Shown in pieces: positions 2,185 to 27,995 of a stretch of DNA of 32,000 bases (position 1 is its first letter; each line of letters starts with the position of its first letter). A model generated the notes under the pieces. The model was not told where the DNA came from. It worked only from the letters and a program-made list of their open reading frames with translations, and ran no database searches. The DNA is taken from contig NC_007517.1 in NCBI RefSeq assembly GCF_000012925.1, positions 570,001-602,000 on the forward strand. The letters are read 5' to 3'. This DNA is from Geobacter metallireducens GS-15. Lineage in GTDB: Bacteria > Desulfobacterota > Desulfuromonadia > Geobacterales > Geobacteraceae. Both the position numbers and the translations under genes were made by a program.

Positions 2185-2209
2185 ATCTACCATGAAAAGG
2201 AGCGAATGC

Positions 2210-3457
2210 ATGATTAATATGCGCAAGATATCCACCATCTCCGGCGTCGCCCTCGGTACGGCACTGCTGGCAGGCACGGCCTTTGCCGGCCCCCGCATTA
2301 CCTTCGGACCTGAGGACCAGGGCGCCCTCCAGATCGACTACAAGGGGCAGTTCCAGATGACGGTTCGCGACAACGGTTCCGGCGCTGACGGCAACAGCAC
2401 CACCACCAACTTCAACTTCCGCCGCAACCGTCTCGCCTTCATGGGCAAGTACGGTGACATGGTGAGCCTCTATGTCCAGACCGAGTTCACCGAGGACCCC
2501 AATGTCGGCACCCTCGGTGTTTCCGACCAGAGTGCCAACACCGAATTCCAGTTGCTGGACGCAGTTGTGCGGTTCAAACTCAACGATGCCTTCCGGGTCA
2601 ACGTGGGCAAGTTCAAGTACGGCTTCTCCCGTGAGAACCTCGAGGCGTGCGAGATGCCTCTGACCCTCGACCGCTCTCTCTTTATCCGGGCCCCTTTCGT
2701 TTCTACCCGCGATATGGGGGTTGGAATCTGGGGTAACGTCCTGGAAGACAAGATCCAGTACCGTGCCGACGTGATGGAAGGGCGCAAGGCTGGTGATGAA
2801 GATGGTAACGGTCACAAATCACCCGACTCCAGCTTCCGTTATACGTTCCGGGGTCATGTGTCGCTGCTGGATCCCGAGTCGGATTATGGCTATAAGGGGA
2901 CCTACATGGGCAAGAAGCAGGTTCTCACCTTTGGCGCTGCCTACCAGTTCGAGCCCGACGTGGTGTACGGCAACCCCGCAGCCAAATCCGACAAGAAAGA
3001 TTACCAGGCATGGACCGTTGACGGCTTCTTCGAGTATCCCGTGGAAGCGGTCGGAACCTTCACCCTGTCGGCCGCCTATGCGGACTATGACCTGGACAAA
3101 TCCTACAATACGGCCATAAACGCTCTGACTGAGCCTGATAAAGACGCAATTGGCCTCAATGGCGAGAAGAACGGCTGGTACATGAAGGCCGGCTACATGC
3201 TTCCCAACCTGCCGCTCCAGTTCTTCGGTCGCTATGAGAAGTGGAGTTTCGCCATGCTCAACAATATCTACGATCAGGACGTTACCTGGTACGGCGGCGG
3301 GGTTAATTACTACATCTGGGGCCAGAACCTGAAGCTCACGGCTGAAATCAGCCGAACCGATTTCGACAAGGAAGGGGTGGCGAGCGGCATCCAGGGAACT
3401 AACCTGAAGACCGAGGACTTCACCACCTTCGTAACACAGCTCCAGCTTCTCTTCTAG
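2210..3457 (+). CDS. extI: Porin-like outer-membrane beta-barrel protein
   Basis: ORF 2192-3457 trimmed to the ATG at 2210 (AAGGAG at 2197-2202). Signal peptide ...LLAGTAFA/GP. Composition is rich in Gly, Tyr, Asn and Asp with an alternating beta-strand pattern. The C-terminal ...QLQLLF ends in Phe, typical of OM barrels. The symbol is from synteny. Confidence 0.8.
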   Translation: MINMRKISTISGVALGTALLAGTAFAGPRITFGPEDQGALQIDYKGQFQMTVRDNGSGADGNSTTTNFNFRRNRLAFMGKYGDMVSLYVQTEFTEDPNVGTLGVSDQSANTEFQLLDAVVRFKLNDAFRVNVGKFKYGFSRENLEACEMPLTLDRSLFIRAPFVSTRDMGVGIWGNVLEDKIQYRADVMEGRKAGDEDGNGHKSPDSSFRYTFRGHVSLLDPESDYGYKGTYMGKKQVLTFGAAYQFEPDVVYGNPAAKSDKKDYQAWTVDGFFEYPVEAVGTFTLSAAYADYDLDKSYNTAINALTEPDKDAIGLNGEKNGWYMKAGYMLPNLPLQFFGRYEKWSFAMLNNIYDQDVTWYGGGVNYYIWGQNLKLTAEISRTDFDKEGVASGIQGTNLKTEDFTTFVTQLQLLF

Positions 3458-3495: not shown

Positions 3496-3810
3496 ATGAA
3501 AAAAATCATGATGTCCATCGCAGCAGCCCTTGTGGCGGTTTCAATGGCGGCCGTTGCCTTCGCCTCCGGTTCCTTTTCTGGCAAGGTCACCAAGATTGAC
3601 GGCGCCAAGGTAACCGTCAAGGCCGACAAGATCCCCGCCTGGGTCAAGAAGGGTGGGAGCGTTTCCGCCATGGGCGGCTCTCCCAAGGTTCTCGATGTGA
3701 AGGGGAACGAAGTAACTCTTCGCTTCGGCAAGGCCAAGGCCGACAAGGTCAAAGTGGACTCTTCCCTGACCGTCTCCGAAGCTTCCGGAGACGAGCTCCA
3801 GGGGTGCTAG
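3496..3810 (+). CDS. extJ: Small secreted (periplasmic) Lys/Val-rich protein ending ...DELQGC
   Basis: ATG at 3496 preceded by AGGAGGAAAAG. Signal peptide MKKIMMSIAAALVAVSMAAVAFA/SG. The mature part is about 80 aa and beta-rich. The last residue is Cys. The symbol is from synteny only. Confidence 0.75.
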   Translation: MKKIMMSIAAALVAVSMAAVAFASGSFSGKVTKIDGAKVTVKADKIPAWVKKGGSVSAMGGSPKVLDVKGNEVTLRFGKAKADKVKVDSSLTVSEASGDELQGC

Positions 3811-3825
3811 GCTTATGATACCGTG

Positions 3826-3854
3826 CCTCCCCGCTCCGGGCGGGGAGGTTTTTT
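3826..3854 (+). terminator. Rho-independent terminator after the small secreted protein gene
   Basis: CCTCCCCGC-tccgg-GCGGGGAGG (9-bp stem) followed by TTTTTT. Confidence 0.8.
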
Positions 3855-3923
3855 GATTATGAATAAATCAAATTATTCAAATTGTTAATACCTAATGATT
3901 GGTCCCGGGTAAAGGAGAGGTGA

Positions 3924-5276
3924 ATGATGCTCAAACCTGTATGGCTGAAGCTATCGGTGGCCGCGGTTGCCTTCTGTGCCGCTACGCCGGTCTTTGCCGA
4001 AAAGGCCGGTATCGGCTGGCAGGGGACGATCTCCGCCAAGGCCGGCAAGGCTAAGACCATGGCAGAACTGGCCAAGATGTACGATTCAAGTTCCTGTATT
4101 GAATGTCACCAGGAGACCCACAACGATTGGAACAAATCGATCCATGCCCGCTCCATCTTCGGCACGAGCCGGACCGCGGCAACCCTCAAGACGGCGGTTG
4201 TCAACGGCCTGATGGAGTGGCCCTATTCGGGGGTTAAGAAACCGGAGGATGTGAAGGTTGAGCACCTGATGGGGTGTGCAAAGTGTCACCTTCCCCAGTT
4301 GGCTGATGCCGAGGATTCGGTGGCCAAGGAGATCATCGCCACTGTCGACAACTGGCAGGATGCCCTCAAGAAAAAGGATACGGTGAAAGCGTCTGCCGAA
4401 GCTGACAAGCTCAAAAGCCTGAACATCAGCTGTCTTGTTTGCCACAACCGCAACGCCATCACCCACAAATGGACCGACGGCTATCCCCAGGCGGGGGTCG
4501 TGTACGGCTCCAAGGATGGCGATCACCCGTCGGACGCCTTCCCGAAAATGAAGGCCAGTCCGATCATGAGCGAGTCGATTCAGTGTGGGCAGTGCCACGG
4601 CCTCGGTCCCAATATGGAACTGGACAACCCGACCCAGTGCTGCACCAGTTACGGCAGCTACCTCTGGGCCTACACGGCCGAGGGGGGGAGCGAGACCTGC
4701 CAGGACTGCCACATGAAGAAGAGCAAGCTCGGCCACAACATGCAGAGCTACCGCGATCCGGGCATGGCCAAGGCTGCGGTGGAGTTCAAGGCTGAGGCGC
4801 GGGCGTTCCACTGGCGTGACGGCGCCACGATCAAGCCCAAGGCGGTGGTGAAGGTGGAGATGGTGAACCGTGCCGGCCACTCCATCCCCGATGGCTGACC
4901 GACCCCCAACCGACTGGTTCTGTCGGTAATAGCAAAAACAAAAGATGGCCAGGAAGTGTTCAACCAGGAGAAGATCTACATGCCGGTTCCCCAGCAGCTT
5001 GGCCGGGGTGACCGGATGGGGCGCGGCCCCTATGAGAAGAGCGGAATTATTGAAGATACCGGCCTCCCGCCGGGCAAGGCGGTCCACGAGCGATTCGACA
5101 TTTTCTTCCCGGTTGATGAAGTGGAAGAGAACGGCAAGTGGGTGACGAAGCCCACTGCCAGCGAGTTGGACCTCGAAGTGAAGCTCTGGTATCTCCCCTT
5201 CGGCACCATGAATGCCGATCCCTTCCTGTGGCATGAGTTCACCAAAAAGGTGAGCATCAGCACCACCGGGAAATAG
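3924..5276 (+). CDS. extKL: Pentahaem c-type cytochrome, probable selenoprotein (TGA 4896-4898 read as Sec; ORFs 3924-4898 and 4956-5276 fused)
   Basis: GGAGAGG RBS and signal peptide ...TPVFA/EK. Five CXXCH sites: CIECH, CAKCH, CLVCH, CGQCH, CQDCH. Both ORFs are in the same frame with no other stop between 4899 and 4955. The tail has normal protein composition (...EVKLWYLPFGTMNADPFLWHEF...). The TGA falls inside ...NRAGHSIPDG[TGA]PTPNRLVLSV..., and a SECIS-like hairpin follows. The N-terminal cytochrome part on its own has confidence of about 0.9. Confidence 0.6.
4909..4927 (+). promoter_or_regulatory. SECIS-like recoding hairpin downstream of the in-frame UGA
   Basis: ACCGAC (4909-4914) pairs with GUCGGU (4922-4927) around the 7-nt loop UGGUUCU. 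The stem begins at the 11th nt after UGA and the loop contains GGUU. Both features resemble the minimal fdhF-type bacterial SECIS. Confidence 0.45.
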
Positions 5277-5309
5277 CAGTATCACGCTTGACCTCCTTCT
5301 CTGTTATGG

Positions 5310-5339
5310 GCCGGCAGGGTCACCTGCCGGCTTTTTTTT
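5310..5339 (+). terminator. Rho-independent terminator after the extKL-like gene
   Basis: GCCGGCAGG-gtca-CCTGCCGGC (9-bp stem) followed by TTTTTTTT. Confidence 0.8.
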
Positions 5340-5369
5340 CACGGGTCATTGCGCTATGATAGGCGCCAG

Positions 5370-7265
5370 ATGACGTACCTTTCCTTTCTGATAGATTCTC
5401 TTCCCCTGCTTCGGCGTTTGGCCACGTTCGCGCTGCTTCCGCTCGCCCTGCTGCTTTCAGGCTGCAATGGGGGTGGGGGAGAAAACGGCTCGTGCCTCTC
5501 ATGCCACCGGGGTATCGAGCATGCTTCTCCTGCCCATCCCCGCTGCGTTTCCTGCCACGGAGGCAATGAACGGGGCAGGGACAAGGAATCCGCCCACCGG
5601 GGCATGTTCGCCCTCCGCAATCCGTCGGATCCCCGCTCCTGGGAGCATAGCTGCGGTGCCTGCCACCCTTGGCAGCTTGCCCGGGTGAAGGGGAGTCTCA
5701 TGCAGACCAACACCGGGATGATTAAGAACATCCAGCTAACCTGGGAGGGGGAGGACGGAAAGCTCTACGGCAGCCGACGCGAGGATGTCTACTCCCCTGA
5801 TGGCAAAGAACGGCAGCTTGCCGCGGTGACGGAGCTGGACAATATCTCCGGAGAGCTCTACCGCAAGTTCTGCTCCCTCTGCCATGTCGGCATTGAAAAC
5901 CGTTACGCCTACGATGTGGGGCATTCGGCGGGGTGTGCCGCCTGCCACTTTCCCTGGAACGATACCGGCACCTATGCCGGCGGCGACCTGACCATGAAGG
6001 GGCGGGGGCCGGCCTCGGCTTCCCATGGGATGACGGGGCTTCCGGGCAACGACGTCTGCTTTCGGTGCCATAACCGGAGCGGCCGCATCGCCCTGTCGTA
6101 CATGGGGCTCAACGACGGCAACACCGCCCAGGTGCCGACGCGAAACGGGTTTCCCGGACCGCTTCTCACCAGCGGGAGCCGGAGCGTCACCCGCATCACG
6201 CCGGACATCCACTATGCCATGGGGATGGACTGCATCGACTGCCATACTTCCCGCGACATCATGGGTGACGGATACGCCTACGAGAACCTCTACCACCAGG
6301 TGGAGATCCGCTGCGAGGATTGCCACGGCAGCGGCACCGAGCTTCCCCGCTGGCGGGAAATCGTCCGGGAGAACGAAGCCCCGGTGCGCGAGTCGCGGCA
6401 GTACCGGCGGCAGATGCGCCCCGGCATGCGGATGATCGTCACCGGCAAGGGGCGCCCCTACTCGAACGTTTTCTACGAAAACGGACTGGTACGGCTTGTC
6501 GGCAAACGGAGCGGCCGCCTCTATACCAGCAAGGTGATTACCGGCACCCCGGCCCATACCGTAGCCGGCCACGGCAGGCTGGAGTGCTACAGTTGCCACT
6601 CCCGCGCGGTGGTCCAGTGTTACGGCTGCCATACCAACTACGACAAGTCCAGGACCGGCCGCGATTTTGTAAAGGATATGGATACCCTGGGGCTCTTTAC
6701 CGAGTCCGAGGACTACCGGATGCTCTACCCGTTCCCCCTGGCCCTCAACCAGCGGGGTAAAATATCGCCGGTCACCCCCGGTTGCCAGACCTTCGTGACC
6801 GTCACCGAGGTGGACGGGCGCGTGTCCAAAGAGGGGTATGTGACAACCTTCAAGGGTAAGCAGCAGCTGCGCTTTGCCCCCTTCTACTCCCACAACACCG
6901 GTGTGAAGGCCATCGGCTGCGGTGAGTGCCACGCAAACCCCGCCTTCCTGGGGTTCGGCCAGCATGAGGTGGAGGGGAGAAATATCGCTGCAACCATGCT
7001 CTGCCCCAAAAACGAGGAGAAGCCCCTGGACGGCTTCCAGACCATGGAGGGGGGGAAGGTGCGGGCTTTCTCGGCCGTTACCAGGGAAAATTCCCGCCCG
7101 CTTAACGAAGCGGAGGTTATGAAGGTATGGCGGGCAAACCTCTGCATTGTCTGCCACACCCGTCCCGACGACCCCATTTACCGCAAGGAGCTCGACTATC
7201 GTGCCCTGGATGATGCACTTCATCGCCGTATTCTGGCTGGCGGCGGCACTCGCGTCGCCCGCTGA
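5370..7265 (+). CDS. Dodecahaem c-type cytochrome lipoprotein
   Basis: ORF 5349-7265. The start is uncertain (ATG 5370 preferred, TTG 5349 possible). Lipobox LLLSGC followed by NGGGG. Twelve CXXCH motifs counted in the translation. Confidence 0.85.
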   Translation: MTYLSFLIDSLPLLRRLATFALLPLALLLSGCNGGGGENGSCLSCHRGIEHASPAHPRCVSCHGGNERGRDKESAHRGMFALRNPSDPRSWEHSCGACHPWQLARVKGSLMQTNTGMIKNIQLTWEGEDGKLYGSRREDVYSPDGKERQLAAVTELDNISGELYRKFCSLCHVGIENRYAYDVGHSAGCAACHFPWNDTGTYAGGDLTMKGRGPASASHGMTGLPGNDVCFRCHNRSGRIALSYMGLNDGNTAQVPTRNGFPGPLLTSGSRSVTRITPDIHYAMGMDCIDCHTSRDIMGDGYAYENLYHQVEIRCEDCHGSGTELPRWREIVRENEAPVRESRQYRRQMRPGMRMIVTGKGRPYSNVFYENGLVRLVGKRSGRLYTSKVITGTPAHTVAGHGRLECYSCHSRAVVQCYGCHTNYDKSRTGRDFVKDMDTLGLFTESEDYRMLYPFPLALNQRGKISPVTPGCQTFVTVTEVDGRVSKEGYVTTFKGKQQLRFAPFYSHNTGVKAIGCGECHANPAFLGFGQHEVEGRNIAATMLCPKNEEKPLDGFQTMEGGKVRAFSAVTRENSRPLNEAEVMKVWRANLCIVCHTRPDDPIYRKELDYRALDDALHRRILAGGGTRVAR

Positions 7266-8457
7266 CGGCGCCGAGAACTGCCGGGCCTGCCACCGGGACG
7301 CTGTTTCCGGTCCCCATGCCGCCATCGGCTGTACCCCCTGTCACGGGGACGACCGTTCCACGGTGGGGAATCCGGCCACCGCGGTTGACCGGGCCGCCCG
7401 TTGCGTCGCCTGCCACCGGGGCTTCGACCGGCTGTTCGATCACGCCATGGCGACCCGGACGGCGGAACGGCAGTTCGTGGCCAGAACCGTGGGGCGGTTC
7501 GATGGAGGATTCTGGGCCGACAACTGCACCGGCTGCCACGTTCGTGGCTGTCTCGACTGCCACGGCGGCAAGGGGCACGCCATGTCCCGACCCCGCGACG
7601 GCGTCTGTCTTGACTGTCACCGTGGCTATTTTGTGGGAAGCGACTACCACGGCCGGGCCCCCAGGGAGGACGCTTTCCGCTTCCAGCGGGGCCCCTTTGC
7701 CGGTGGAGAACAGTTTCTACCCATGCTTCCCGATGTCCATGCCGAGGCCGGCATCGGCTGCGGCGGCTGCCACGACATGGCGAGCCTGGCCGCCGGCAGG
7801 CGGAGCGGCAAGGGATGCCGCGACTGCCACGAACCCGACCAGAGGATAGTGGAGCACCGCATCCCTGCCCACAGGGAGCGGCTCGAATGCTACGCCTGCC
7901 ACTCGGCCTGGGCGCCCCAGGAGTACGGCACCTTCTGGCTCCGCTTCATCGACAGCCCCCGCCGCCAGGCGCGGTTCACGGCCATCCCCCATCAGGATGA
8001 GTGGGTAAAGAGCGCCTATCTCAAGCGGCAGGATGCCCCTCCCTTGGGGCTGAACAGTGCGGGGAAGGTGAGCCCCATTCGGCCGCAGTTCATCCTCTAT
8101 TTTTCAGATATCCGGAGCGAACGGGCGGTGGGGGAGGAGAACCGGCTCCTGGCCGCGGAGTGGAAGGCATTCTTCCCCCATACGGTCCGGCGGGGCACCG
8201 TCATGTGCGACGGCTGCCACGACAATCCGCGCCGCTTCCTCCTGGAGGGGGAAAAGGAGCGGATTTACCGGCTGAAGGATGATGGCTTGTCCCTGGAATC
8301 CTTCTGGCGCCGGGAGGGGCAGCGGGTGGTGAACGGGAGTTTCATGGACCCTGAACGGGTCAGGAAGATGGCCGTGAGGACACCGGCGTACACGAAGGGA
8401 TATATCGAGAAATGGCAGCGGTTGACCGGGGACGCCGGCACTTCATCGCGGCGCTGA
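7210..8457 (+). CDS. Decahaem c-type cytochrome (paralogous in its C-terminal half to the preceding 12-haem protein)
   Basis: ORF 7147-8457 trimmed to the ATG-ATG at 7210, giving the signal peptide MMHFIAVFWLAAALASPADG. Ten CXXCH motifs. Shared blocks with the upstream protein include LECY(S/A)CHS and GK(I/V)SP(V/I). It overlaps the upstream gene by 56 nt. Confidence 0.8.
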   Translation: MMHFIAVFWLAAALASPADGAENCRACHRDAVSGPHAAIGCTPCHGDDRSTVGNPATAVDRAARCVACHRGFDRLFDHAMATRTAERQFVARTVGRFDGGFWADNCTGCHVRGCLDCHGGKGHAMSRPRDGVCLDCHRGYFVGSDYHGRAPREDAFRFQRGPFAGGEQFLPMLPDVHAEAGIGCGGCHDMASLAAGRRSGKGCRDCHEPDQRIVEHRIPAHRERLECYACHSAWAPQEYGTFWLRFIDSPRRQARFTAIPHQDEWVKSAYLKRQDAPPLGLNSAGKVSPIRPQFILYFSDIRSERAVGEENRLLAAEWKAFFPHTVRRGTVMCDGCHDNPRRFLLEGEKERIYRLKDDGLSLESFWRREGQRVVNGSFMDPERVRKMAVRTPAYTKGYIEKWQRLTGDAGTSSRR

Positions 8458-8807
8458 TTGCGTTCATCGCTTCTTTAGCGGCGGCATGGCGGTTTCTTGT
8501 CCCCAAAAGGAGGGAATCCGGGGAGCGCTTCGTCATTGACATGGCGGCCGTTCCGCCACGGGGCGCCCTCGTCTATCGCGAACGCCGACTGGCGGTGATG
8601 CGGGATGGAGGTGAGATTTACGCCCTGAATCTGACCTGTACCCATCTCGGCTGTACCGTGACCGTAACCCCGGGGGAGATTGTCTGCCCCTGCCACGGCA
8701 GTCGCTTCGACCTCAAGGGCAATGTTCTGAAAGGGCCGGCCGACCGGCCCCTGGCCCGCCACCGGCTTGAAATCCGTGGTGGGAGGGTGGAGATTTATCC
8801 GGGATGA
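8412..8807 (+). CDS. Rieske [2Fe-2S] protein with a Tat-type signal
   Basis: Twin-arginine motif GRRHFIAAL followed by a TM helix. Rieske boxes CTHLGC and CPCHGS. It overlaps the upstream gene by 46 nt. Confidence 0.9.
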   Translation: MAAVDRGRRHFIAALIAFIASLAAAWRFLVPKRRESGERFVIDMAAVPPRGALVYRERRLAVMRDGGEIYALNLTCTHLGCTVTVTPGEIVCPCHGSRFDLKGNVLKGPADRPLARHRLEIRGGRVEIYPG

Positions 8808-9424
8808 TCAAGGAATTTGCCAAACATCTCTTCCCCCGGGTGGTGCTGCGGGAGAACCTGCGGTTCACCTACACCTTCTGTCTGGGGGGACTCGCCTTCA
8901 CGGCGCTCATCGCTCTGGCCGTGTCCGGGGTGCTGCTCCTGTTCTATTACCAGCCGACACCCGCCGGGGCCTTTGACTCCATCCTCTTCCTGGAATCGAC
9001 GGTCGTTGGCGGGAAGTACCTGCGGGGACTCCACCGGCTTGCCTCCCACGGACTTTTGGTCCTGCTGTTCCTCCATGTCCTTCGGGTGGTGCTCTCCGGC
9101 GCCTACCGGCCGCCGCGGGAGCTAACCTGGGTGGTGGGGGTGGGGCTTCTGGCGCTGTCGGTGTTCGAGGCGTACACCGGCTATCTCCTCCCCATGGACC
9201 AGTTGGCCTTCTGGGCGACCCGAACCGGTATGGAGCTTCTGGCCACCCTGCCTGGAGGTCCGTGGCTGAAGGCCGTCCTCGTCCCCGACGGAGTGGGGGA
9301 ACCCCTGTCGCTGCTGCGCTTTTACGCGCTCCATGTGGTAGTTGTCCCCGTGGCGGTGCTGGCCCTGTCGTTTCTCCACTTCTACCGGGTGCGCAAGACA
9401 AAGGGGATACTGCCGTATCTGTGA
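8804..9424 (+). CDS. Cytochrome b (b6-like N-terminal four-helix subunit)
   Basis: ATGA overlap with the Rieske stop. Two His pairs are placed in TM helices: HRLASHGLLVLLFLH (13 intervening residues between the outer His) and LHVVVVPVAVLALSFLH (14 intervening). This matches the bis-haem b ligation pattern. Confidence 0.85.
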   Translation: MIKEFAKHLFPRVVLRENLRFTYTFCLGGLAFTALIALAVSGVLLLFYYQPTPAGAFDSILFLESTVVGGKYLRGLHRLASHGLLVLLFLHVLRVVLSGAYRPPRELTWVVGVGLLALSVFEAYTGYLLPMDQLAFWATRTGMELLATLPGGPWLKAVLVPDGVGEPLSLLRFYALHVVVVPVAVLALSFLHFYRVRKTKGILPYL

Positions 9425-9431
9425 GGGCTCA

Positions 9432-9893
9432 ATGGCTGAAAGGATGGAAGTGAAAAACGACTTGAGGCGGGGACCGCGCGGCAGTGGCGAATACGTAAGG
9501 AGTTCCCCCCACTTTTTTCGCCTCGTCAAGCGGGCTTTCTGGGGGGGGCTGGTGGCCCTGGCGCTGCTGGCCATGGTTATCCCTGCGCCGCTTCTGGACC
9601 CAGCGAATCCGGGCGCGCCGCCGAATCCTGCCAAATCGGCCTGGTTTCTCCTCTGGACCCAGGAGGTGGTGAGCCACGGCAACGGCTTTGCCTGGATCAT
9701 CGTGGGGCTCTCCCTCTGGTTCCTGGCCCTGCCGTGGCTCGGTATGCACCGCCCCGAGCGCGCCGTCTGGTTTGGTGAGGGGAACCGCGCCGCTGCCTGG
9801 ACCACCATCGCCGTCTTTGCGGCCATCGTGTCAATGACGGTCCTGGCCATGTTCTTCAGGGGGGAAAATTGGTCGCTCGTCTCCCCCTTCTGA
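9432..9893 (+). CDS. Cytochrome b C-terminal / subunit IV-like membrane protein
   Basis: ORF 9342-9893 trimmed to the ATG at 9432 (MAERMEV...), just after the cytochrome b stop. It has three hydrophobic helices. The segment ANPGAPPNPAKSAWFLLWTQE is positioned like the P-E-W-Y region of PetD / cytochrome b C-terminus. Confidence 0.7.
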   Translation: MAERMEVKNDLRRGPRGSGEYVRSSPHFFRLVKRAFWGGLVALALLAMVIPAPLLDPANPGAPPNPAKSAWFLLWTQEVVSHGNGFAWIIVGLSLWFLALPWLGMHRPERAVWFGEGNRAAAWTTIAVFAAIVSMTVLAMFFRGENWSLVSPF

Positions 9894-10660
9894 TCCTGCT
9901 CTGCCTGGTGCTTGCCGCCTGCGTGGGGAAAGCGCCGGGCGAGGGGTGCCTCTCCTGCCACCCGTCCCATTACGCCGAGCGGGGGAGTTGTGTCTCCTGC
10001 CACCGGGGGAACGGGAAGAGCGTCCGCAAAGCCATTGCCCACCATCGGCTCATTCCGGCGGAACTTGCCCATTTTACGGTTCCGGGAAGTCGCCGGGTGG
10101 AGGAGGGGAAGCGTTTGGTAGAGCGGTTCGGCTGCCGCCGCTGCCACAACCTGGGCGGCAAGGGGACACGGCTTGCCGCCGATCTGGACCGTCTGGCCGG
10201 TGACGACCCGGTGCGGCTCTTCGGCGCCATCAAACGGCCGGTCCTCTTTATGCCCGACTTTCATTTCGACGACCGGCAAACGGCCGGCCTGGTCAATGCC
10301 GTCATGGCTTTTGCCGCGAAAGCTCCGCGGCCCGTAAGTGGCGGGCTTCCGGTTGTCGTTCACTTCGCCTCCCCCCAGCAAGGGGAGAAGAACATCTTTG
10401 AGAAAAAATGCGGTGGCTGCCATCGGCTGCTGACGGCCCGCGAGGGAGCGCTGGGTAACGGCGACGTCGCTCCCAATCTCTCGGGGCTATTTACCCCCTT
10501 CTACCCGACTCCCTTCAAGCCCGGCGAGCCATGGACCCCCGAACGGCTCGGACGCTGGCTCGACAATCCCAGGGCCGTGCGGCCGGACACCCCGATGCCG
10601 CCGGTGCGCCTTTCTCTCACTGAAAAAAAACAACTGACAGAGATGCTGAAAATCGATTAG
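9869..10660 (+). CDS. Tetrahaem c-type cytochrome lipoprotein
   Basis: The ORF-track start is TTG at 9869, which is uncertain. Lipobox LVLAAC. Four CXXCH sites: CLSCH, CVSCH, CRRCH, CGGCH. Confidence 0.8.
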   Translation: MVARLPLLILLCLVLAACVGKAPGEGCLSCHPSHYAERGSCVSCHRGNGKSVRKAIAHHRLIPAELAHFTVPGSRRVEEGKRLVERFGCRRCHNLGGKGTRLAADLDRLAGDDPVRLFGAIKRPVLFMPDFHFDDRQTAGLVNAVMAFAAKAPRPVSGGLPVVVHFASPQQGEKNIFEKKCGGCHRLLTAREGALGNGDVAPNLSGLFTPFYPTPFKPGEPWTPERLGRWLDNPRAVRPDTPMPPVRLSLTEKKQLTEMLKID

Positions 10661-21017: not shown

Positions 21018-22517
21018 TTGATCTTCAAAAGCCTGACAACGAGAGTTATCGTAACCCTGGTCGGCCTCCTTTCCGTGGGAATCGGCACCTTTACCTACTT
21101 CAACCTCAAACGGGAAAAAGACCAGCTTGTCAAGGCAACCCGCGAGAATGCCTACCTCCTTCTCGACACTATCGAGCGCAGCATCTACAAGTCCATGAGC
21201 GTTGGTGACACCCAGGATGTGCAGGTCATGCTGCAGATGGTGGGCCATAGCCACAGCAAACTCATCGGCGTCAGGATATTTCATCCCCAGGGAATCGTCC
21301 TCAAGTCGTCCCGGCCCGAGGAGGTGGGGATGCCGGTGCCCGAGGGGGATTACCAACTCTTTATCAACAACCGCAAGGAAGGTGTCTACTCCAGCGACGC
21401 CTTCGGTGAGGTCCTCGGGGTTATCAAGCCGATCTACAACGATGTGCTGTGCCAACGGTGCCACGGCACCAAAAAGCGGCTTATCGGGGTTCTCAACGTC
21501 AACTACTCCCAGGTCGAGACCAACCGCCGGATTCTTGAGGCAACGCGGCTTTCCCTCGTCTCCACCGGTGCGGTCATTCTCTTCTGCGCGGCAGCCATCT
21601 CCCTCGTCATCGTCCGATTTGTCCGGCAACCCTTGAACAACCTCATCGACAGCATGGCGCGGGTGGAGGAGGGAGACCTTTCCGTCCGCATAACCCCTGT
21701 GGCCGAGGACGAGATCGGCCGGCTCATCGTGAGTTTCGACTCCATGGTCGGCAAGCTCGACAAGGCGAAGAGGGAACTGGAAGAGTACCACTTCCAGCAG
21801 ATGGAACGGGCCGATCGTCTGGCCTCGGTGGGGGAAATGGCCGCGGGGATCGCTCACGAAATCAAGAACCCCCTGGCCGGCATCTCGGCGGCCATGACCA
21901 TCATCCGTCAGGATTTTTCCGACGAAGATCCCCGCAAGGAGATCATCGGAGAAGTGGTCGAGCAGGTGAGCCGGCTCGACAAGACGGTGAACGATCTCCT
22001 GTTCTTCGGCAAGCCGACCCCCCCCGAACCGACCTATGCCGACGTGAACGCGATCCTGCGGAAAACCCTCCTCTTCGCCCTGCAGCACAAGGGGGGAAAG
22101 AATATCGCCAAGAGCCTGGATCTTGCCGACGGCCTTCCGGAAATCTTCGTGGACCCGAAGCAGGTGCAGCAGGTTTTCCTGAATCTGATCCTTAACGCCA
22201 TCCAGGCCATGCAGGCCGACGGGGGGACCCTCACCGTGGGGAGTTCCCTGGTGGACCTTGACGGCAAGGGGTGGGTGCGCACCACCATTGCCGACACTGG
22301 CCCCGGCATCCCGGAGCCGATCATCGGCAAAATCTTTACCCCCTTCTTCACCACCAAGGCACAAGGGACGGGGCTTGGACTCGCCATCTGCCACAAGCTC
22401 ATTACCCAGCATGGCGGTACCCTTTCCGTGACCAGCGAAGACGGCAAAGGAACGGTGTTCACCATCGATCTGCCGGTGGCGGCATACGAAGAGGGTGCGC
22501 CGGAAGAAGAGGCATAG
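21018..22517 (+). CDS. Sensor histidine kinase (TM, periplasmic domain with CXXCH, TM, HAMP, HisKA, HATPase)
   Basis: TTG start with GGAGG 4 nt upstream. CQRCH lies at nt 21450-21464, between the two TM helices. HAMP region (RFVRQPLNNLIDSM...). H-box AAGIAHEIKNPL. G-box GTGLGLAICHKL. Confidence 0.9.
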   Translation: MIFKSLTTRVIVTLVGLLSVGIGTFTYFNLKREKDQLVKATRENAYLLLDTIERSIYKSMSVGDTQDVQVMLQMVGHSHSKLIGVRIFHPQGIVLKSSRPEEVGMPVPEGDYQLFINNRKEGVYSSDAFGEVLGVIKPIYNDVLCQRCHGTKKRLIGVLNVNYSQVETNRRILEATRLSLVSTGAVILFCAAAISLVIVRFVRQPLNNLIDSMARVEEGDLSVRITPVAEDEIGRLIVSFDSMVGKLDKAKRELEEYHFQQMERADRLASVGEMAAGIAHEIKNPLAGISAAMTIIRQDFSDEDPRKEIIGEVVEQVSRLDKTVNDLLFFGKPTPPEPTYADVNAILRKTLLFALQHKGGKNIAKSLDLADGLPEIFVDPKQVQQVFLNLILNAIQAMQADGGTLTVGSSLVDLDGKGWVRTTIADTGPGIPEPIIGKIFTPFFTTKAQGTGLGLAICHKLITQHGGTLSVTSEDGKGTVFTIDLPVAAYEEGAPEEEA

Positions 22518-22539
22518 TGGCCGGAGTCGGTCAGGTTTT

Positions 22540-22574
22540 ATTCTGGATTCTGGCTCCTGTATTCTGTATTCTTT
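22540..22574. repeat. Five tandem imperfect heptamers ATTCTGG ATTCTGG CTCCTGT ATTCTGT ATTCTTT
   Basis: Read directly from the kinase / response-regulator intergenic region. Confidence 0.6.
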
Positions 22575-22625
22575 TTTCATTCGGTAATTTCCAGATATCC
22601 GCTTGGTTACGATAAAGGAGCAGAT

Positions 22626-23999
22626 GTGAGAAAGACGAAGATTCTGGTTGTCGACGACGAGCACCTTATCCGCTGGTCCCTGGAGCAGAATCTGAAAAAA
22701 CAGGGATACGAGGTGGTTTCGGCCGGCAACGGCGAGGATGCCCTGCGGCTCGTCCGGGATGAACAACCGGACCTGGTGCTGCTCGATATCCAGCTCCCCG
22801 GCATCAGTGGCCTGGATGTCCTGGAGAAGATCAAGGAGCACGACGAGGAGATCATCGTGATCATGGTCACGGCCCACGGAGCGCTGGAGACGGCGGTTCA
22901 TGCCATGCGGCTCGGGGCCTTCGACTATATCAACAAGCCCTTTAACCTGGACGAGATGGCCATCGTCATCCGCAAGGCCCTGGAAACCTCCGATCTCCGG
23001 CGGGAGGTCCAGCGGCTGCGGGGTGAGCAGGCGAAGAAGTTCGGTACGCCCGATATCATCGGAGCGAGCCGCCACATGAAGAACGTCCTCGACATGATGG
23101 AGAAGGTGGCCAAGAGCGACGCCTCCACTGTCCTCGTTCAGGGAGAGTCGGGGACCGGCAAGGAGCTGGTCGCCAAGTGGATCCACTATAAATCCGCCCG
23201 GGCCGAACGCCCCTTTGTCGCCATAAACTGCGCTGCTGTCCCGGCGACACTCCTCGAAAGCGAGCTCTTCGGTCATGAAAAAGGGGCCTTCACCGACGCC
23301 AAGGCGATGAAAAAGGGGCTTTTCGAGCTGGCCGACGGTGGCACGGTCTTTCTTGACGAGATCGGCGACATGGAGTTGGGGATGCAGGCGAAGCTCCTCC
23401 GCTTCCTGGAGGAACGGACCTTCCGCCGCATCGGCGGCACCAAGTCGTTTTCCGTCGATGTCCGGATCATCTCCGCCACCAACCGCGACCTCATCAAGGC
23501 GATCGAGGAAAAGAGCTTCCGCAACGATCTCTACTATCGCCTCCAGGTGATCCCCATCTATCTCCCCCCCCTGCGGGAGCGGCGGGAAGACATCCTCACC
23601 CTGACCAGCCATTTCATCGAGCTGTTCAACGCCGAGTTCAACAAGCATGTCACCGGCATCTCCAAGATGGCGGAGAAACTCTTGCTCGACTACACCTGGC
23701 CCGGCAATATCCGCGAATTGAAGAACGTCATCGAGCGCGCCATCATTCTCGGCAATGACGAGACGCTCCTCCTTGAGCACCTGCCGCTGGAAATCGTCGC
23801 CAAGGCCTCCTCCCAGTCCGTGGGGCTCACCACCTTCAAGCTTCCCCCCGAGGGGATAGACATTGAAGAGGTGGAAAAGGAGCTTATCCGCCAGGCCCTG
23901 GAGATCTCGGACTGGAACCAGTCCAAGGCGGCCAGGAAGCTTAATCTCGGCATTGACGCCTTCCGTTACCGGATGAAGAAATTCGGGTATTTGAAGTAG
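22626..23999 (+). CDS. Sigma-54-dependent response regulator (NtrC family: REC + AAA+ + Fis-type HTH)
   Basis: GTG start with AAAGGAG 5 nt upstream. REC domain (ILVVDDE...LVLLDIQLPG). Walker A GESGTGKE. The sigma-54 contact loop is GAFTDA, a variant of GAFTGA. C-terminal HTH QSKAARKLNLGIDAFRYRMKKFG. Confidence 0.95.
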   Translation: MRKTKILVVDDEHLIRWSLEQNLKKQGYEVVSAGNGEDALRLVRDEQPDLVLLDIQLPGISGLDVLEKIKEHDEEIIVIMVTAHGALETAVHAMRLGAFDYINKPFNLDEMAIVIRKALETSDLRREVQRLRGEQAKKFGTPDIIGASRHMKNVLDMMEKVAKSDASTVLVQGESGTGKELVAKWIHYKSARAERPFVAINCAAVPATLLESELFGHEKGAFTDAKAMKKGLFELADGGTVFLDEIGDMELGMQAKLLRFLEERTFRRIGGTKSFSVDVRIISATNRDLIKAIEEKSFRNDLYYRLQVIPIYLPPLRERREDILTLTSHFIELFNAEFNKHVTGISKMAEKLLLDYTWPGNIRELKNVIERAIILGNDETLLLEHLPLEIVAKASSQSVGLTTFKLPPEGIDIEEVEKELIRQALEISDWNQSKAARKLNLGIDAFRYRMKKFGYLK

Positions 24000-24073: not shown

Positions 24074-24257
24074 CATTCCTTCCCTTTTCCCGCGAAATTC
24101 TCTTCCGTTTAGTCAAAAAAACGTCTCCGGACAAAACCCCCATCGGTGCGAAGTGGCGGAAAGTGGACCACGGTACAGGATTAGGGGTTTTTGTACGAGA
24201 AGCGACAGGGGTGTCTTCGTTGGGCAGGTGTGTCAAATGCTTGATTCGTCGAGTGTT

Positions 24258-24273
24258 TGGCACCGTTATTGCT
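24258..24273 (+). promoter_or_regulatory. Sigma-54 (RpoN) -24/-12 promoter
   Basis: TGGCAC-CGTTA-TTGCT is a perfect match to TGGCAC-N5-TTGC(A/T). It lies 86 nt upstream of the ATG at 24359. Confidence 0.8.
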
Positions 24274-24358
24274 CCTTGAGTACAGGAACGCCAGGTGCGA
24301 ATGGACAGAGAGTCCCGATTCAACCGGCTATCTGCACTATGAATGCGGAGGCATTACC

Positions 24359-27058
24359 ATGTTACACAGATCGCCTAAACGAATGGTGGCCGTTGCCCTC
24401 TTCCTGGCGTGTCTGGTTATTTCGCTGACAACGGTGACATTTGCCGCTCCAGCGCCAACCATTCAGATACAGAACCCAATGGTTGAGGGGATTCGCTCTC
24501 CACTTCGGATTGCATCGGATTCACTGGGTGGCGTGTATGTCTCCGATTCCCTTGCAAAGGGAGTCCTTAAATACGACGTAGTTGGCCATTTGGCGCAGAC
24601 CATAAAAACTGCCGCGCCTCCCCAGGGGATTGCCGTCGCCTCCGACGGAACACTCCTCGTGGGGCAGGGAACCTACGTTTCAATGTATAGCGCCGCCGGC
24701 CAGGAGATTGGAAAACTCGGCGCCGGCGAGGGGCAGTTCAAAATGGCCGATGGCATCACGGTGGACGACGACGGCTCCATTTATGTGGTCGACTGCCTCG
24801 ATAACAGTGTGCAAATCTTCAACGCCGCCGGCAGCTTCGTGAAAAAATTCGGATCATTCGGCACCACGCCGGGCAAGTTCTCCACCCCCAGCGGCATTGC
24901 TTTCGAAAAGGTTTCCCGGCAGGTGGCAGTTGTTGACACGCGAACCGGCCGAATCCAGTTTTTTGACAAAACCGGTGCCTATGTACGGACGATAGGGAGT
25001 TTCGGCACGAACCCCCTCCGCTTCACTGCCCCCCAAGGTGTCTCCTTCGAGTATTCCAGCGGCTCGACGCCGGTTCTCAAGCGCATGTACGTGGTCGATA
25101 CCTTCCAGAGCACCGTGCAGGCCATCGACCCGGCGGCAACGCCGGTATTCCTTTCCTACATCGGTACCTACGGGAGCGGCAACGGCAAGCTGATGGTCCC
25201 CTCCGACGTCCTCTTCGATCAGGCCACCGGCCGGCTCCTGGTGGTGAACGGCTTCGGCAACGTGTCCGTGTACGGCGTCGATGGCGGTGGCGTTTCCGTT
25301 GCCGTTGACCTCATTCCGCCGGCCCTCACCATAAACCCGGTCGTCTCCCCCTTCATGTCCCCGACCCTCGATCTTTCGGGCACCGTGGAGGCGGGCGCCA
25401 GGCTGACCATTGCAACCGGCGGAACCACGACGGTCGGCGCCATCTCGTTCCCGACCCCCACCACCTGGCAGACGACGTTGAGCGGTTTTGCCCCCGGTGG
25501 CACGACCATTACGGTGACTGCCCGCGACGCGGCAAACAACGCCACTAACCAGTCCGTAACGGTGAGCTATCTGCAGTCGGGCCCCATGCTGACCATGGAA
25601 CCCCTCCCCACCTTTACCGCCGATACGTTCCAGCAACTGTCCGGCCTGGTTGATCCGGGTTCGGTGGTTACCGTGACCAACGCCACAACGGGTGCCAGCG
25701 CCAAGGCCCTGGTATTCGGCAATACCTGGAGCTATCGGTTGCCCCTCGCTGCCGGCGCCAACAGCATCACCGTCAAGGCGGAAAAGTCCATGAGCGCCGC
25801 CACGACGGTGAGCGCCACGACAACCCTTGACGCAATCCCGCCGGCTCTTGCGGTATCGGCCCTGGCCGACGGCAGCTATACGAGCGGGCAGGTCCAGAAC
25901 ATCCAGGTGATGGTGACCGATGCCAACCTCGACGTTGTCACCCTCAACGGCCAGCAGATTGTCCCGGTGAACGGCTCTTACAGCACCGCCATTACCCTCA
26001 AGCCGGGCCCCAACGTCATCATGGCGGCTGCTGTTGACCTGGCCGGGAACGTGACAACCGACATCCGGACCATTATCTATGACGGAACCAGGCCGGTGGT
26101 CTCCTTCACCACTCCTGCCGAGGGGACCTATGTCACCTCCGACCATGTTTCCGTGAGCGGAATCGTCGATGAGACAGCCGTCGTCACGGTTGCCGGCTTG
26201 CCGGCCCGCATGGACGGCACCTCCTGGAGTGCAGACGTCCCCCTCGTCCCGGGAATGAATACCATCGACGTGGTTGCCGTTGACCTGGCCGGAAACGTCG
26301 GTTCCGTCAAACGGACGGTCACCTACGACACCGAAGCCCCGGCCCTGGTGGTCAGCGCCCCGAGCCAGGACGTTGTCACCAACCGGCCGACCTTTGGTTT
26401 TGCCGGCAACGTTACCGATCCGAGCCCCGTGACCCTCACCGCCGAGGTCGATGGCGCGCCCGTTGCTGTGACCGTGACCGACGGGTCCTTCACCCTTGCG
26501 GTAACCTTCGCCAACGAGGGGAGCCATGCCGTCACCTTTACCGCCACCGACGCCGCCGGCAACGCGAGTCGCGTGACGCGGACCGTAATCTATGACGGCA
26601 CCGCGCCGGCCCTTACGCTTGACCCGGTCAATACTCCCTATCCGTCGGTGCTGACCGGCACGGTGGAAGCGGGTGCGGCGGTCACCGTGGAGGACCGCAA
26701 CGGTTCCGCCGGCACGGTTACGGTCAGTGGCGAAAAGTGGAACGCAGCGCTGGAAGTGGGGGGCTACGATGCCGCTTCCCTGGCCGTACGCGCCACCGAC
26801 GTTGCGGGCAACAGCACGGTCCGCAGTCTCGTGGTCAACGTACCCGACGGCGATCTGAACGGTGACGGCGCGGTAACGGTCCATGACGTGATTCTGGCGC
26901 TCAGAATGTTCACCCGGCAAATGGTGCCGACGGCCAACCAGTTGGCCCACGGCGACATCGGCCCGCTCTATCAAGGGAAGGCGAAGCCCAACGGCGTTGT
27001 CGACCTTGTGGACGCAATACTGATCATGAGAAAGGCCCTCGGCATGCCGAGCTGGTAG
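24359..27058 (+). CDS. Secreted NHL-repeat beta-propeller protein with six Ig-like repeats and a dockerin-like C-terminus
   Basis: ORF 24257-27058 trimmed to the ATG at 24359 (GGAGG RBS; signal peptide ...TTVTFA/AP). Six NHL-type blades, for example GITVDDDGSIYVVDCLDNSVQIFN. Six repeats of about 85 aa each end ...AGN.....R(T/S)V(T/I)Y. The C-terminus contains DLNGDGAVTVHDVILALRM...NGVVDLVDAILIMRKALG. Confidence 0.85.
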   Translation: MLHRSPKRMVAVALFLACLVISLTTVTFAAPAPTIQIQNPMVEGIRSPLRIASDSLGGVYVSDSLAKGVLKYDVVGHLAQTIKTAAPPQGIAVASDGTLLVGQGTYVSMYSAAGQEIGKLGAGEGQFKMADGITVDDDGSIYVVDCLDNSVQIFNAAGSFVKKFGSFGTTPGKFSTPSGIAFEKVSRQVAVVDTRTGRIQFFDKTGAYVRTIGSFGTNPLRFTAPQGVSFEYSSGSTPVLKRMYVVDTFQSTVQAIDPAATPVFLSYIGTYGSGNGKLMVPSDVLFDQATGRLLVVNGFGNVSVYGVDGGGVSVAVDLIPPALTINPVVSPFMSPTLDLSGTVEAGARLTIATGGTTTVGAISFPTPTTWQTTLSGFAPGGTTITVTARDAANNATNQSVTVSYLQSGPMLTMEPLPTFTADTFQQLSGLVDPGSVVTVTNATTGASAKALVFGNTWSYRLPLAAGANSITVKAEKSMSAATTVSATTTLDAIPPALAVSALADGSYTSGQVQNIQVMVTDANLDVVTLNGQQIVPVNGSYSTAITLKPGPNVIMAAAVDLAGNVTTDIRTIIYDGTRPVVSFTTPAEGTYVTSDHVSVSGIVDETAVVTVAGLPARMDGTSWSADVPLVPGMNTIDVVAVDLAGNVGSVKRTVTYDTEAPALVVSAPSQDVVTNRPTFGFAGNVTDPSPVTLTAEVDGAPVAVTVTDGSFTLAVTFANEGSHAVTFTATDAAGNASRVTRTVIYDGTAPALTLDPVNTPYPSVLTGTVEAGAAVTVEDRNGSAGTVTVSGEKWNAALEVGGYDAASLAVRATDVAGNSTVRSLVVNVPDGDLNGDGAVTVHDVILALRMFTRQMVPTANQLAHGDIGPLYQGKAKPNGVVDLVDAILIMRKALGMPSW

Positions 27059-27123
27059 AACCCCTCGGGGTGGATGCAGGACGCAGCGCGGCGTAAGGGA
27101 TTACACGCAACGAGGTTTTCAAG

Positions 27124-27966
27124 ATGAAGAAACGATTTCTGGCAACAGCGGTAATGGCGGCCATCATGGCCTGGGGAGCGATTGTGAACGCGGGACCTGG
27201 CAAGATAAAAAATACGGTTCACAATATGTCGAGCGTTGCGCCATCCGGGTTTGTAGGGACGAGGCACTGGTACAGCACCGACACTGATGAGGTCTGCGTT
27301 TTCTGCCACACGCCCCACAACGCCAAGCCGGCCCAACCCTTGTGGAACAAGGTGAATCCTACCCAGGCTTTCAATATGTACACCTCGTCAACCACTCTGA
27401 CATCGGTGGCCAAGAAGGTAACAGCGCCGAGCCCCGAATCACTGTTGTGCCTGAGTTGTCATGACGGCCGCACGGCTATCAACGTTCTCCACAACAGCTC
27501 TGCCGGAATTGATGCTGGCGGTGGGGACAAAAAGCTGATGATTGGGGGGGTATATGATGATCCCACGGCCCCGGCGGGGGTTACCGGCATTCCGATGAAT
27601 ATAGACACTTTTACGATACCCAATACCTATAGGGCCAACCTCGGTAGGACTGAAGCTGACAGGTACGCCGGCACCAATCTCATGGACGACCATCCCATCT
27701 CCTTCTCCTATACCGCCGCCTATAACGAAAAGGTGGGCAGCGGATCAAGCGCCATTAATCCGATTGCCACTCCCTTGTCAAAGGGGCTGCGGTTTTTCGG
27801 TTCCAACAACCGCATGGAGTGTTCCACCTGCCACGATCCCCATGTGGATTACGGCATGGATTTCGATGGCAATCCGACCTATAGCGGCGGCAATACTGCA
27901 TTAAGACCATTTCTCGTACGCGATAATACCGGCAGCGCCATGTGCCTGGCCTGCCACAACAAATAG
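27124..27966 (+). CDS. Tetrahaem c-type cytochrome (paired-CXXCH type)
   Basis: Signal peptide ...GAIVNA/GP. Four haem sites: CVFCHTPHN...PLWNK, CLSCHDG, CSTCHDPH and CLACHNK. Confidence 0.9.
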   Translation: MKKRFLATAVMAAIMAWGAIVNAGPGKIKNTVHNMSSVAPSGFVGTRHWYSTDTDEVCVFCHTPHNAKPAQPLWNKVNPTQAFNMYTSSTTLTSVAKKVTAPSPESLLCLSCHDGRTAINVLHNSSAGIDAGGGDKKLMIGGVYDDPTAPAGVTGIPMNIDTFTIPNTYRANLGRTEADRYAGTNLMDDHPISFSYTAAYNEKVGSGSSAINPIATPLSKGLRFFGSNNRMECSTCHDPHVDYGMDFDGNPTYSGGNTALRPFLVRDNTGSAMCLACHNK

Positions 27967-27995
27967 GACGTGTCTGCCTTGCTCAGGAGCTCGCC

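Follow-up and report, generated by a model that had tools for sequence, protein, structure and literature searches.

The extKL gene and its product

A 32,000-nucleotide stretch of DNA from Geobacter metallireducens GS-15 (hereafter the window) carries at 3924-5276 a single reading frame of 451 codons, whose translation is interrupted by one internal stop, TGA at 4896-4898, and closed by a terminal TAG at 5274-5276. This frame, its features and the ext gene cluster around it all lie on the forward strand. The open reading frames (ORFs) 3924-4898 and 4956-5276 are in a common frame, and the peptide that flanks the TGA reads ...VEMVNRAGHSIPDG before and PTPNRLVLSVIAKTKDGQEV... after it. We are highly confident that the frame constitutes one gene, extKL (mccsep), for a secreted polypeptide of 450 amino acids in which the UGA is decoded as selenocysteine (Sec) at residue 325, and which is by homology a polysulfide reductase. 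An initial annotation of the window, made from the letters of the DNA, had already described one frame with a lone TGA at this position, five haem motifs and the same peptide context, all of which translation confirms; it counted 126 codons after the TGA, where we count 125 sense codons.

For the profile search the fused product was used with Cys substituted at the TGA position. It matches the NCBIfam model NF040886, "multiheme c-type cytochrome (seleno)protein ExtKL", with 629.3 bits at a cut-off of 250, and the match spans the TGA (residues 13-445 correspond to profile positions 5-422 of 423). Residues 3-450 align ungapped to PDB entries 9WT8/9WT9, the MccSep protein of Geobacter sulfurreducens PCA, with an E-value of about 1e-266 and an identity of 84% over the mature part. 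In this alignment the TGA of extKL falls on U325 of MccSep, and R83, H122, C239, C240, D323, G324, P326 and K372 are identical in the two proteins. The C-terminal domain, residues 326-450, aligns to the solved MccSep chain, where it is contiguous with the haem domain. The extKL gene of the window is the orthologue of a named selenoprotein that has been characterised structurally and biochemically, and it is in this sense already known.

A Shine-Dalgarno-like AAGGAGAG (3912-3919), read from the sequence and of presumed function, precedes the ATG by 4 nt. The 450-residue coding sequence (CDS, 3924-5276, with Sec at residue 325 according to translation, NF040886 and the PDB alignment) begins with a Sec-type (secretory) signal peptide, residues 1-25 (3924-3998), which is recognised by homology with MccSep of strain PCA and is predicted to be cleaved between ...PVFA and EKAGIGWQ. 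Five CXXCH motifs follow, each aligned to its counterpart in 9WT8: CIECH for haem 1 (residues 58-62, 4095-4109), CAKCH for haem 2, the active-site haem, with H122 as its predicted proximal ligand (residues 118-122, 4275-4289), CLVCH for haem 3 (residues 170-174, 4431-4445), CGQCH for haem 4 (residues 221-225, 4584-4598) and CQDCH for haem 5 (residues 259-263, 4698-4712). The UGA codon for the putative Sec325 (4896-4898), assigned from the conservation of its column and its alignment to U325, has C as its next nucleotide. Three further codons are conserved in the alignment and have known roles in MccSep of strain PCA: Arg83 (4170-4172) in anion and substrate binding at the channel entrance, Cys239 (4638-4640) as distal ligand of haem 2, which thereby has His/Cys ligation, and Lys372 (5037-5039) in a water-mediated contact with the selenium of Sec (PMC13510729).

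The selenoprotein of G. sulfurreducens

The initial annotation mentioned that a Sec-containing multihaem cytochrome might already have been proposed at this locus in G. sulfurreducens, and this is borne out: GSU2937-2936 is extKL, a proposed selenoprotein that was predicted in silico by Mihara's group and that papers of 2018 cite as a probable single Sec-containing protein, so that the finding in the window is a rediscovery. The protein described by NF040886 also appears in a 2026 review of prokaryotic selenoproteins, and at least eight selenoprotein genes have been reported for G. sulfurreducens. The further view that the chemistry of the protein is unresolved is outdated, because structure, mechanism and physiology have since been published by Mihara et al. 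(bioRxiv preprint, November 2025; Sci Adv, August 2026; PMC13510729).

In strain PCA an antibody to the GSU2936 (C-terminal) part detects a single periplasmic protein of 49 kDa, whose mature N-terminus is EKAGIGWQ... according to Edman sequencing and which contains 4.9 Fe and 0.96 Se per subunit; Sec itself was seen by electrospray ionisation mass spectrometry (ESI-MS) in the carbamidomethylated peptide VEMTNHAGHSIPDGUPTPNR (PMC13510729). At 1.75 Å the structure shows a homotetramer, with a five-haem helical cap and a C-terminal immunoglobulin (Ig)-like beta-sandwich in each subunit. The ligands of haem 2 are H122 and C239, and U325 lies on a D-G-U-P loop, about 3.6 Å from the C239 sulfur and in two conformations (PMC13510729). 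Polysulfide is reduced with a Vmax of 83 µmol/min/mg and a K0.5 of 0.19 mM and selenite, in vitro, with a Vmax of 59 µmol/min/mg and a K0.5 of 0.99 mM, which makes polysulfide the kinetically preferred substrate with an approximately sevenfold higher Vmax/K0.5. The variants U325A, U325C and C239H are nearly inactive. A deletion mutant of mccsep is defective in growth and sulfide production on elemental sulfur, and MccSep is induced by elemental sulfur (PMC13510729).

Conservation across the TGA and Sec/Cys homologues

A scan of one genome per species yielded 153 relatives, of which the best 80 were kept. These loci, at 50-92% identity, represent Geobacter, Geomonas, Geotalea, Citrifermentans, Desulfuromonas, Desulfuromusa, Desulfobulbaceae, Nitrospirota and Gemmatimonadota, together with further lineages. 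Each of the 80 has TGA in the identical column, within the motif H-x-x-[PA]-D-G-U-P-[TS]-P, and in each of them the frame runs on past the TGA into the conserved C-terminal domain. The two closest loci of the genome collection, L001 and L002, both from metagenome-assembled genomes, share 84.5-92% nucleotide identity with extKL of the window. Compared with either of them, the ratio of nonsynonymous to synonymous substitution rates (dN/dS) is 0.045 after the TGA (codons 338-450), and it is 0.043 and 0.037, respectively, before the TGA (codons 26-324); more distant pairs are similar. Purifying selection downstream of the TGA thus matches that upstream, and the absence of such selection, which the initial annotation had named as a result that would contradict it, is clearly not what is observed. 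The initial annotation had also judged the downstream codons to have the composition of a normal protein.

The full-length homologues retrieved at first have neither Sec nor Cys at this position, and Cys-type members were found by a HMMER search with the C-terminal 125 amino acids. A Cys is aligned to the TGA in the full-length proteins P0127 (…GHGFPDGCPTPNRLVLD…), P0131 and P0130 (…PDGCPTTT…). Together with the TGA in all 80 loci, this answers the question raised by the initial annotation, namely whether homologues are continuous across the position with Sec(TGA) or Cys aligned to it. The UGA forms and the Cys forms of ExtKL make up the classical Sec/Cys pair. In P0127 the haem-2 CXXCH is replaced by CFQCS, which leaves the active-site haem with no proximal His, either through an error or as a real variant.

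The homologues with neither Sec nor Cys form a sister group (P0035, P0039, P0057, P0068, P0073, P0076, P0083, P0090, P0095, P0103, P0117, P0118 and P0120) of full-length proteins of about 445-480 amino acids with 50-55% identity from end to end, in which all five CXXCH motifs and C239 are kept; Cys239 is invariant throughout, including the homologues without Sec. Their column 325 is occupied by G, T, V, I, L or S, in motifs of the type 'PDSxS' or 'PGSGS'. Because these proteins possess neither Sec nor Cys there, Sec/Cys chemistry would be impossible for them, and their predicted chemistry must differ from that of MccSep. One of them, P0095, carries the NCBI name ExtKL (seleno)protein despite having neither residue.

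A hairpin under selection downstream of the UGA

After a 10-nt spacer the UGA is followed by a hairpin (S2, 4909-4927) resembling a selenocysteine insertion sequence (SECIS), with the stem ACCGAC (4909-4914)/GUCGGU (4922-4927) and the loop UGGUUCU (4915-4921). The initial annotation had given this hairpin with exactly these coordinates, loop and distance. We analysed its conservation in a clade of 51 sequences, the window included, which share Ser334 and of which 44 are unique (53-93% protein identity to the window). In this clade the 20 nt AACCGACUGGUUCUGUCGGU (4908-4927) are nearly invariant. The six pairs of S2 are intact in 44/44 unique sequences except for a single terminal A-C, one A-U is changed to G-U, and the loop is identical in 43 of the 44 (50/51 of all sequences).

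Codon entropy was computed over the 259 alignment columns of the clade in which the amino acid is conserved. Synonymous variation is zero in only four of these columns (329, 331, 333 and 334), all of them inside the hairpin, and codons 329-335, which make up the hairpin, have 0.13 bit, the lowest value of 207 windows, where the mean of the gene is 1.2. The codons kept here are not the favoured ones: the rare CGA, which accounts for 9% of Arg codons in these genes, is used at the hairpin in 50/51 sequences, the rare TCG (18% of Ser codons) in 51/51, and GTT (25% of Val codons) in 50/51. With the remainder of the same genes as control, this is direct evidence that selection acts on the RNA over the hairpin.

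The remaining 30 sequences (26 unique) belong to Nitrospirota, Desulfobulbia and others and correspond to the loci L029, L038, L042, L045, L047, L050-L052, L054-L057, L059-L065, L067, L070-L072 and L074-L080. They have another hairpin, GGUC/GACC, at nt 21-36 counted from the U of UGA, with the loop CUGGAAGU or CUGUAUGU. This hairpin shows wobble changes and, in 2/26 unique sequences, a double change of G-C to A-U, which coincides with amino-acid changes; these counts are based on a hairpin specified by hand, and RNAalifold applied to the whole of this second clade returned no consensus structure. Between the two clades the SECIS sequence appears to have been replaced, but neither the UGA nor the peptide PTPNR has changed. 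As a hairpin stands at a SECIS-like offset in both clades, it can be regarded as a feature of the family, although its sequence is clade-specific.

A competing fold

The window has two copies of the 5' arm ACCGAC, at 4898-4903 and at 4909-4914, for which a single 3' arm is available at 4922-4927. An alternative hairpin (S1, 4898-4927) can therefore form between the upstream copy and the 3' arm, with an inner stem AACC/GGUU (4908-4911/4916-4919), and S1 and S2 are mutually exclusive. S1 is broken in 2/44 unique sequences of the Ser334 clade. G4901, a synonymous position in the CCG codon of Pro326, pairs only in S1; CCG is used in 49/51 sequences of this clade, against 12/30 in the clade that has no such 3' arm. 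This bias at 4899-4901 hints that the UGA-proximal fold may also be under selection.

A rather unlikely extension is that the SECIS of the Geobacter/Desulfuromonas clade is a two-state element, in which two 5' arms compete for one 3' arm. The free mRNA would adopt the stabler S1, with the UGA buried. A ribosome arriving at the UGA would unwind the first arm, the 3' arm would pass to the second copy, and S2, which presents itself to SelB, would arise only at the moment of decoding. Judging from ribosome footprints, a ribosome with the UGA in its A site should enclose the first arm or have it at its mouth, and therefore only S2 could exist during decoding. A hand-over between S1 and S2 is thus possible, though speculative.

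The ext cluster and its surroundings

Upstream of extKL lie extH (744-2138), which encodes a rhodanese-like lipoprotein and has an uncertain start codon (NF040901, 368 bits; Pfam Rhodanese), extI (2192-3457) for an outer-membrane porin (NF040900, 688 bits) and extJ (3496-3810) for a small protein (NF040942, 76 bits). The rhodanese named as first gene of the cluster by the initial annotation is ExtH. Downstream, extMNOPQS (5349-10660) encodes the 12-haem ExtM (5349-7265), the 10-haem ExtN (ORF 7147-8457), the Rieske protein ExtO (8412-8807), the cytochrome b ExtP (8804-9424), ExtQ (ORF 9342-9893) and the 4-haem ExtS (9869-10660). Two NCBIfam models, NF040968 ('FeS_ExtO', iron-sulfur subunit) and NF040967 ('cytc_ExtN'), both match the 10-haem ORF 7147-8457 with about 680 bits, and the Rieske ORF 8412-8807 was matched by no Ext-specific model; the ExtO label of NF040968 looks misassigned. 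With NF040969 the ExtP-like cytochrome b reaches 221 bits, which is below the curated cut-off of 290, yet the match is full-length.

Terminator-like hairpins with a T run bracket extKL, one between extJ and extKL (3825-3855) and one 3' of extKL (5308-5341); the count of such terminator-like sites does not exceed that in shuffled sequences. An AT-rich spacer of about 60 nt (3855-3915) precedes the gene. This layout and the spacer are common only to the closest relatives, L001 and L002; in Geotalea and Geomonas, extJ nearly abuts extKL. The arrangement suggests that extKL may be under separate transcriptional control in this lineage. An alignment of the upstream regions revealed no element conserved beyond the closest relatives.

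The window also holds a second cytochrome cluster (24257-31106). It comprises a 933-aa protein with matches to NHL-repeat and Ca-tandemer families, a 4-haem ORF (27124-27966) and a 1054-aa protein (27942-31106) with 23 CXXCH and three CXXXXCH motifs. A pair consisting of a histidine kinase and a sigma-54 response regulator (21018-23999) lies upstream.

Proposed decoding and catalysis

By analogy with the fdhF type, a hairpin inside the coding sequence, most likely the one at 4909-4927, would present its G- and U-containing loop to the complex of SelB, GTP and Sec-tRNA(Sec) while the UGA at 4896-4898 is decoded. Instead of ending there, the chain would receive Sec as residue 325 and be extended over the remaining 125 codons. 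Following the architecture of the PCA orthologue, the N-terminal helical domain would bind five c-type haems, and the Ig-like beta-sandwich would set Sec325, on its D-G-U-P loop, beside Cys239, the distal ligand of haem 2. The product would be a periplasmic, homotetrameric polysulfide reductase. Its selenolate may attack polysulfide or, less efficiently, selenite, so that a Sec-Se-(S/Se)-S-Cys239 intermediate forms; electrons that reach haem 2 through the haem chain would cleave this intermediate and release sulfide, in support of elemental sulfur respiration. The sequence of selenolate attack, Sec-Se-(S/Se)-S-Cys intermediate and cleavage by haem-2 electrons is the authors' model for MccSep of strain PCA (PMC13510729). 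All residues of the mechanism are conserved in the window protein, and the same mechanism is therefore assigned to it by homology.

What is established here, for the window or its relatives, is the structure of the gene and its place in the family, the conservation of the UGA and of the catalytic residues, and selection on the protein 3' of the UGA and on the RNA of the hairpin. The claim that the UGA is read as Sec was raised by the initial annotation and agrees with the alignment to U325 of MccSep, in which Sec has been demonstrated by ESI-MS and a content of 0.96 Se (PMC13510729).

Some results weigh against this reading. Sec insertion, structure and activity have been shown for the PCA orthologue only, and their attribution to the window protein is an extrapolation at 84% identity. 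None of selA, selB, selC and selD was found in the 32-kb window, in which ARAGORN detected no tRNA and none of 28 ORFs compared with NCBIfam matched a sel-gene family. The stability of the hairpin does not exceed that of shuffled sequence (z = -0.34; 65/200 shuffles are equally or more stable). Energy alone need not distinguish a short SECIS hairpin; as single-sequence folding was indistinguishable from shuffles, stability was dropped as an argument and the comparative data were used. The minimum-free-energy fold is not S2 but S1 (-11.5 against -9.1 kcal/mol). A search of Rfam yielded no SECIS or other credible RNA family, either in the whole window at gathering thresholds or in 4860-4990 at E <= 10. 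Within the Ser334 clade covariation is minimal, the sequence being nearly invariant. As regards function, it has been published that less selenite and tellurite is reduced when extI is lost, and that a strain with only extHIJKL reduces up to 50% as much Fe(III) oxide and 75% as much Mn(IV) oxide as the wild type.

Alternative explanations

On the one hand, the TGA might be a true stop between two genes, as in the annotation of GSU2937/GSU2936, namely a 324-aa pentahaem cytochrome and a 106-aa protein that starts from GTG 4956. ORF callers do separate the two frames, and public gene calls of the family are mostly fragments of about 324 or about 100-120 amino acids, with a minority of full-length entries; such split calls are the signature expected where UGA is misread as a stop. 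We regard a pair of genes as highly improbable, because the 57 nt from the TGA to GTG 4956 encode the conserved PTPNRLVLSV... in 80/80 loci, selection is equal on both sides of the TGA, Cys-type homologues run across its position without a break, and the orthologue is a single chain to residue 450 that has U325 in its active site and is also detected as a 49-kDa band by an antibody to its C-terminal part (PMC13510729). Even less plausible, to the point of being negligible, is a pseudogene, the TGA having arisen by inactivating mutation or by an error of sequencing: nothing beyond the in-frame stop itself speaks for it, and 80 independent assemblies share this TGA, with a downstream dN/dS as low as that given above (0.045).

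The UGA might alternatively be read through by insertion of Trp or Cys from a near-cognate tRNA, with the hairpin merely stimulatory. Termination at a UGA is generally considered weak when the next nucleotide is C, and C follows the UGA in 81/81 sequences (the 80 loci and the window); moreover, no Sec machinery is visible within the window. Nevertheless, the UGA is strictly conserved across phyla, Cys is its sole observed replacement within the PDG-x-P motif, and homologues with other residues at the Sec column have also lost that motif. G. sulfurreducens is, as mentioned, credited with at least eight selenoprotein genes. ESI-MS and the measured selenium content have directly identified Sec in the PCA orthologue (PMC13510729), and the U325C variant of that orthologue is nearly inactive, so that selection acts specifically on Sec (PMC13510729). 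Read-through of this kind therefore has very little probability, much the same as a pair of genes.

A difference of function, with Sec decoded as we propose, deserves more weight but is still unlikely. The main role of ExtKL would then be selenite or tellurite reduction, or periplasmic electron transfer as part of an outer-membrane conduit, ExtHIJKL, for metal oxides, and not polysulfide reduction. NCBIfam calls the cluster a 'selenite/tellurite reduction operon', the phenotypes of the extI and extHIJKL strains cited above point in this direction, the abundance of ExtKL is higher with Fe(III), its regulation by Fur has been reported, and MccSep does reduce selenite in vitro (PMC13510729). The kinetic preference of about sevenfold in Vmax/K0.5 for polysulfide, the impaired growth and sulfide production of the mccsep deletion mutant on elemental sulfur, and the induction of MccSep by elemental sulfur argue for polysulfide (PMC13510729). 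The proposed roles are not mutually exclusive.

Selenoprotein decoding with polysulfide as the principal substrate is thus the reading we prefer. It would place a selenol next to the Cys-ligated haem in which a wire of five haems ends, in an enzyme that explains the elemental sulfur respiration of Geobacter and Desulfuromonas. All this is already established for an orthologue with 84% identity, and the NCBI annotation pipeline has a dedicated family model. The practical value of the present case lies in annotation, where a single selenoprotein gene should take the place of the two ORFs, and it illustrates that a reading of sequence alone can recover a real selenoprotein.

Comparison with known systems

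In Escherichia coli the SECIS of the fdhF type, whose minimal upper stem-loop is bound by SelB, is likewise a hairpin inside the coding sequence directly 3' of the UGA. Its stem starts 11 nt after the UGA; here the stem starts at 10 nt. The G and U of its apical loop are also present in the loop UGGUUCU, and in extKL both loop and stem are under selection. The attribution to the fdhF type by the initial annotation is supported by the retention of S2 in 44/44 unique sequences and by the lowest synonymous variation of the gene. The hairpin differs from that of fdhF in that no bulged U is evident in the 6-bp stem with its 7-nt loop, and in that a duplicated 5' arm produces a competing fold, S1, which has the minimum free energy.

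The closest known system is MccSep of strain PCA itself (= ExtKL, GSU2937-GSU2936, GS_RS14775; PDB 9WT8, 9WT9, 9WTA-C), which likewise has 450 amino acids, five CXXCH motifs at matching positions and Sec325 in a D-G-U-P loop. The sequence at the signal-peptide cleavage site is identical, as is the gene order extHIJ-KL-MNOPQS. About 16% of the residues differ, and the Sec peptide begins with VEMVNR... in the window protein and with VEMTNH... in strain PCA.

More distant likenesses concern the haems. In profile and PDB searches the relationship in sequence to the His/Cys-ligated multihaem sulfur enzymes TsdA and SoxAX and to the multihaem reductases NrfA and MccA amounted to weak, generic cytochrome-domain matches. 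TsdA and SoxAX also have a catalytic haem with Cys as distal ligand, and the branched five-haem core of MccSep can be overlaid on the cores of further multihaem cytochrome c enzymes (PMC13510729). All four, however, are without selenocysteine, and their overall fold is different from that of MccSep.

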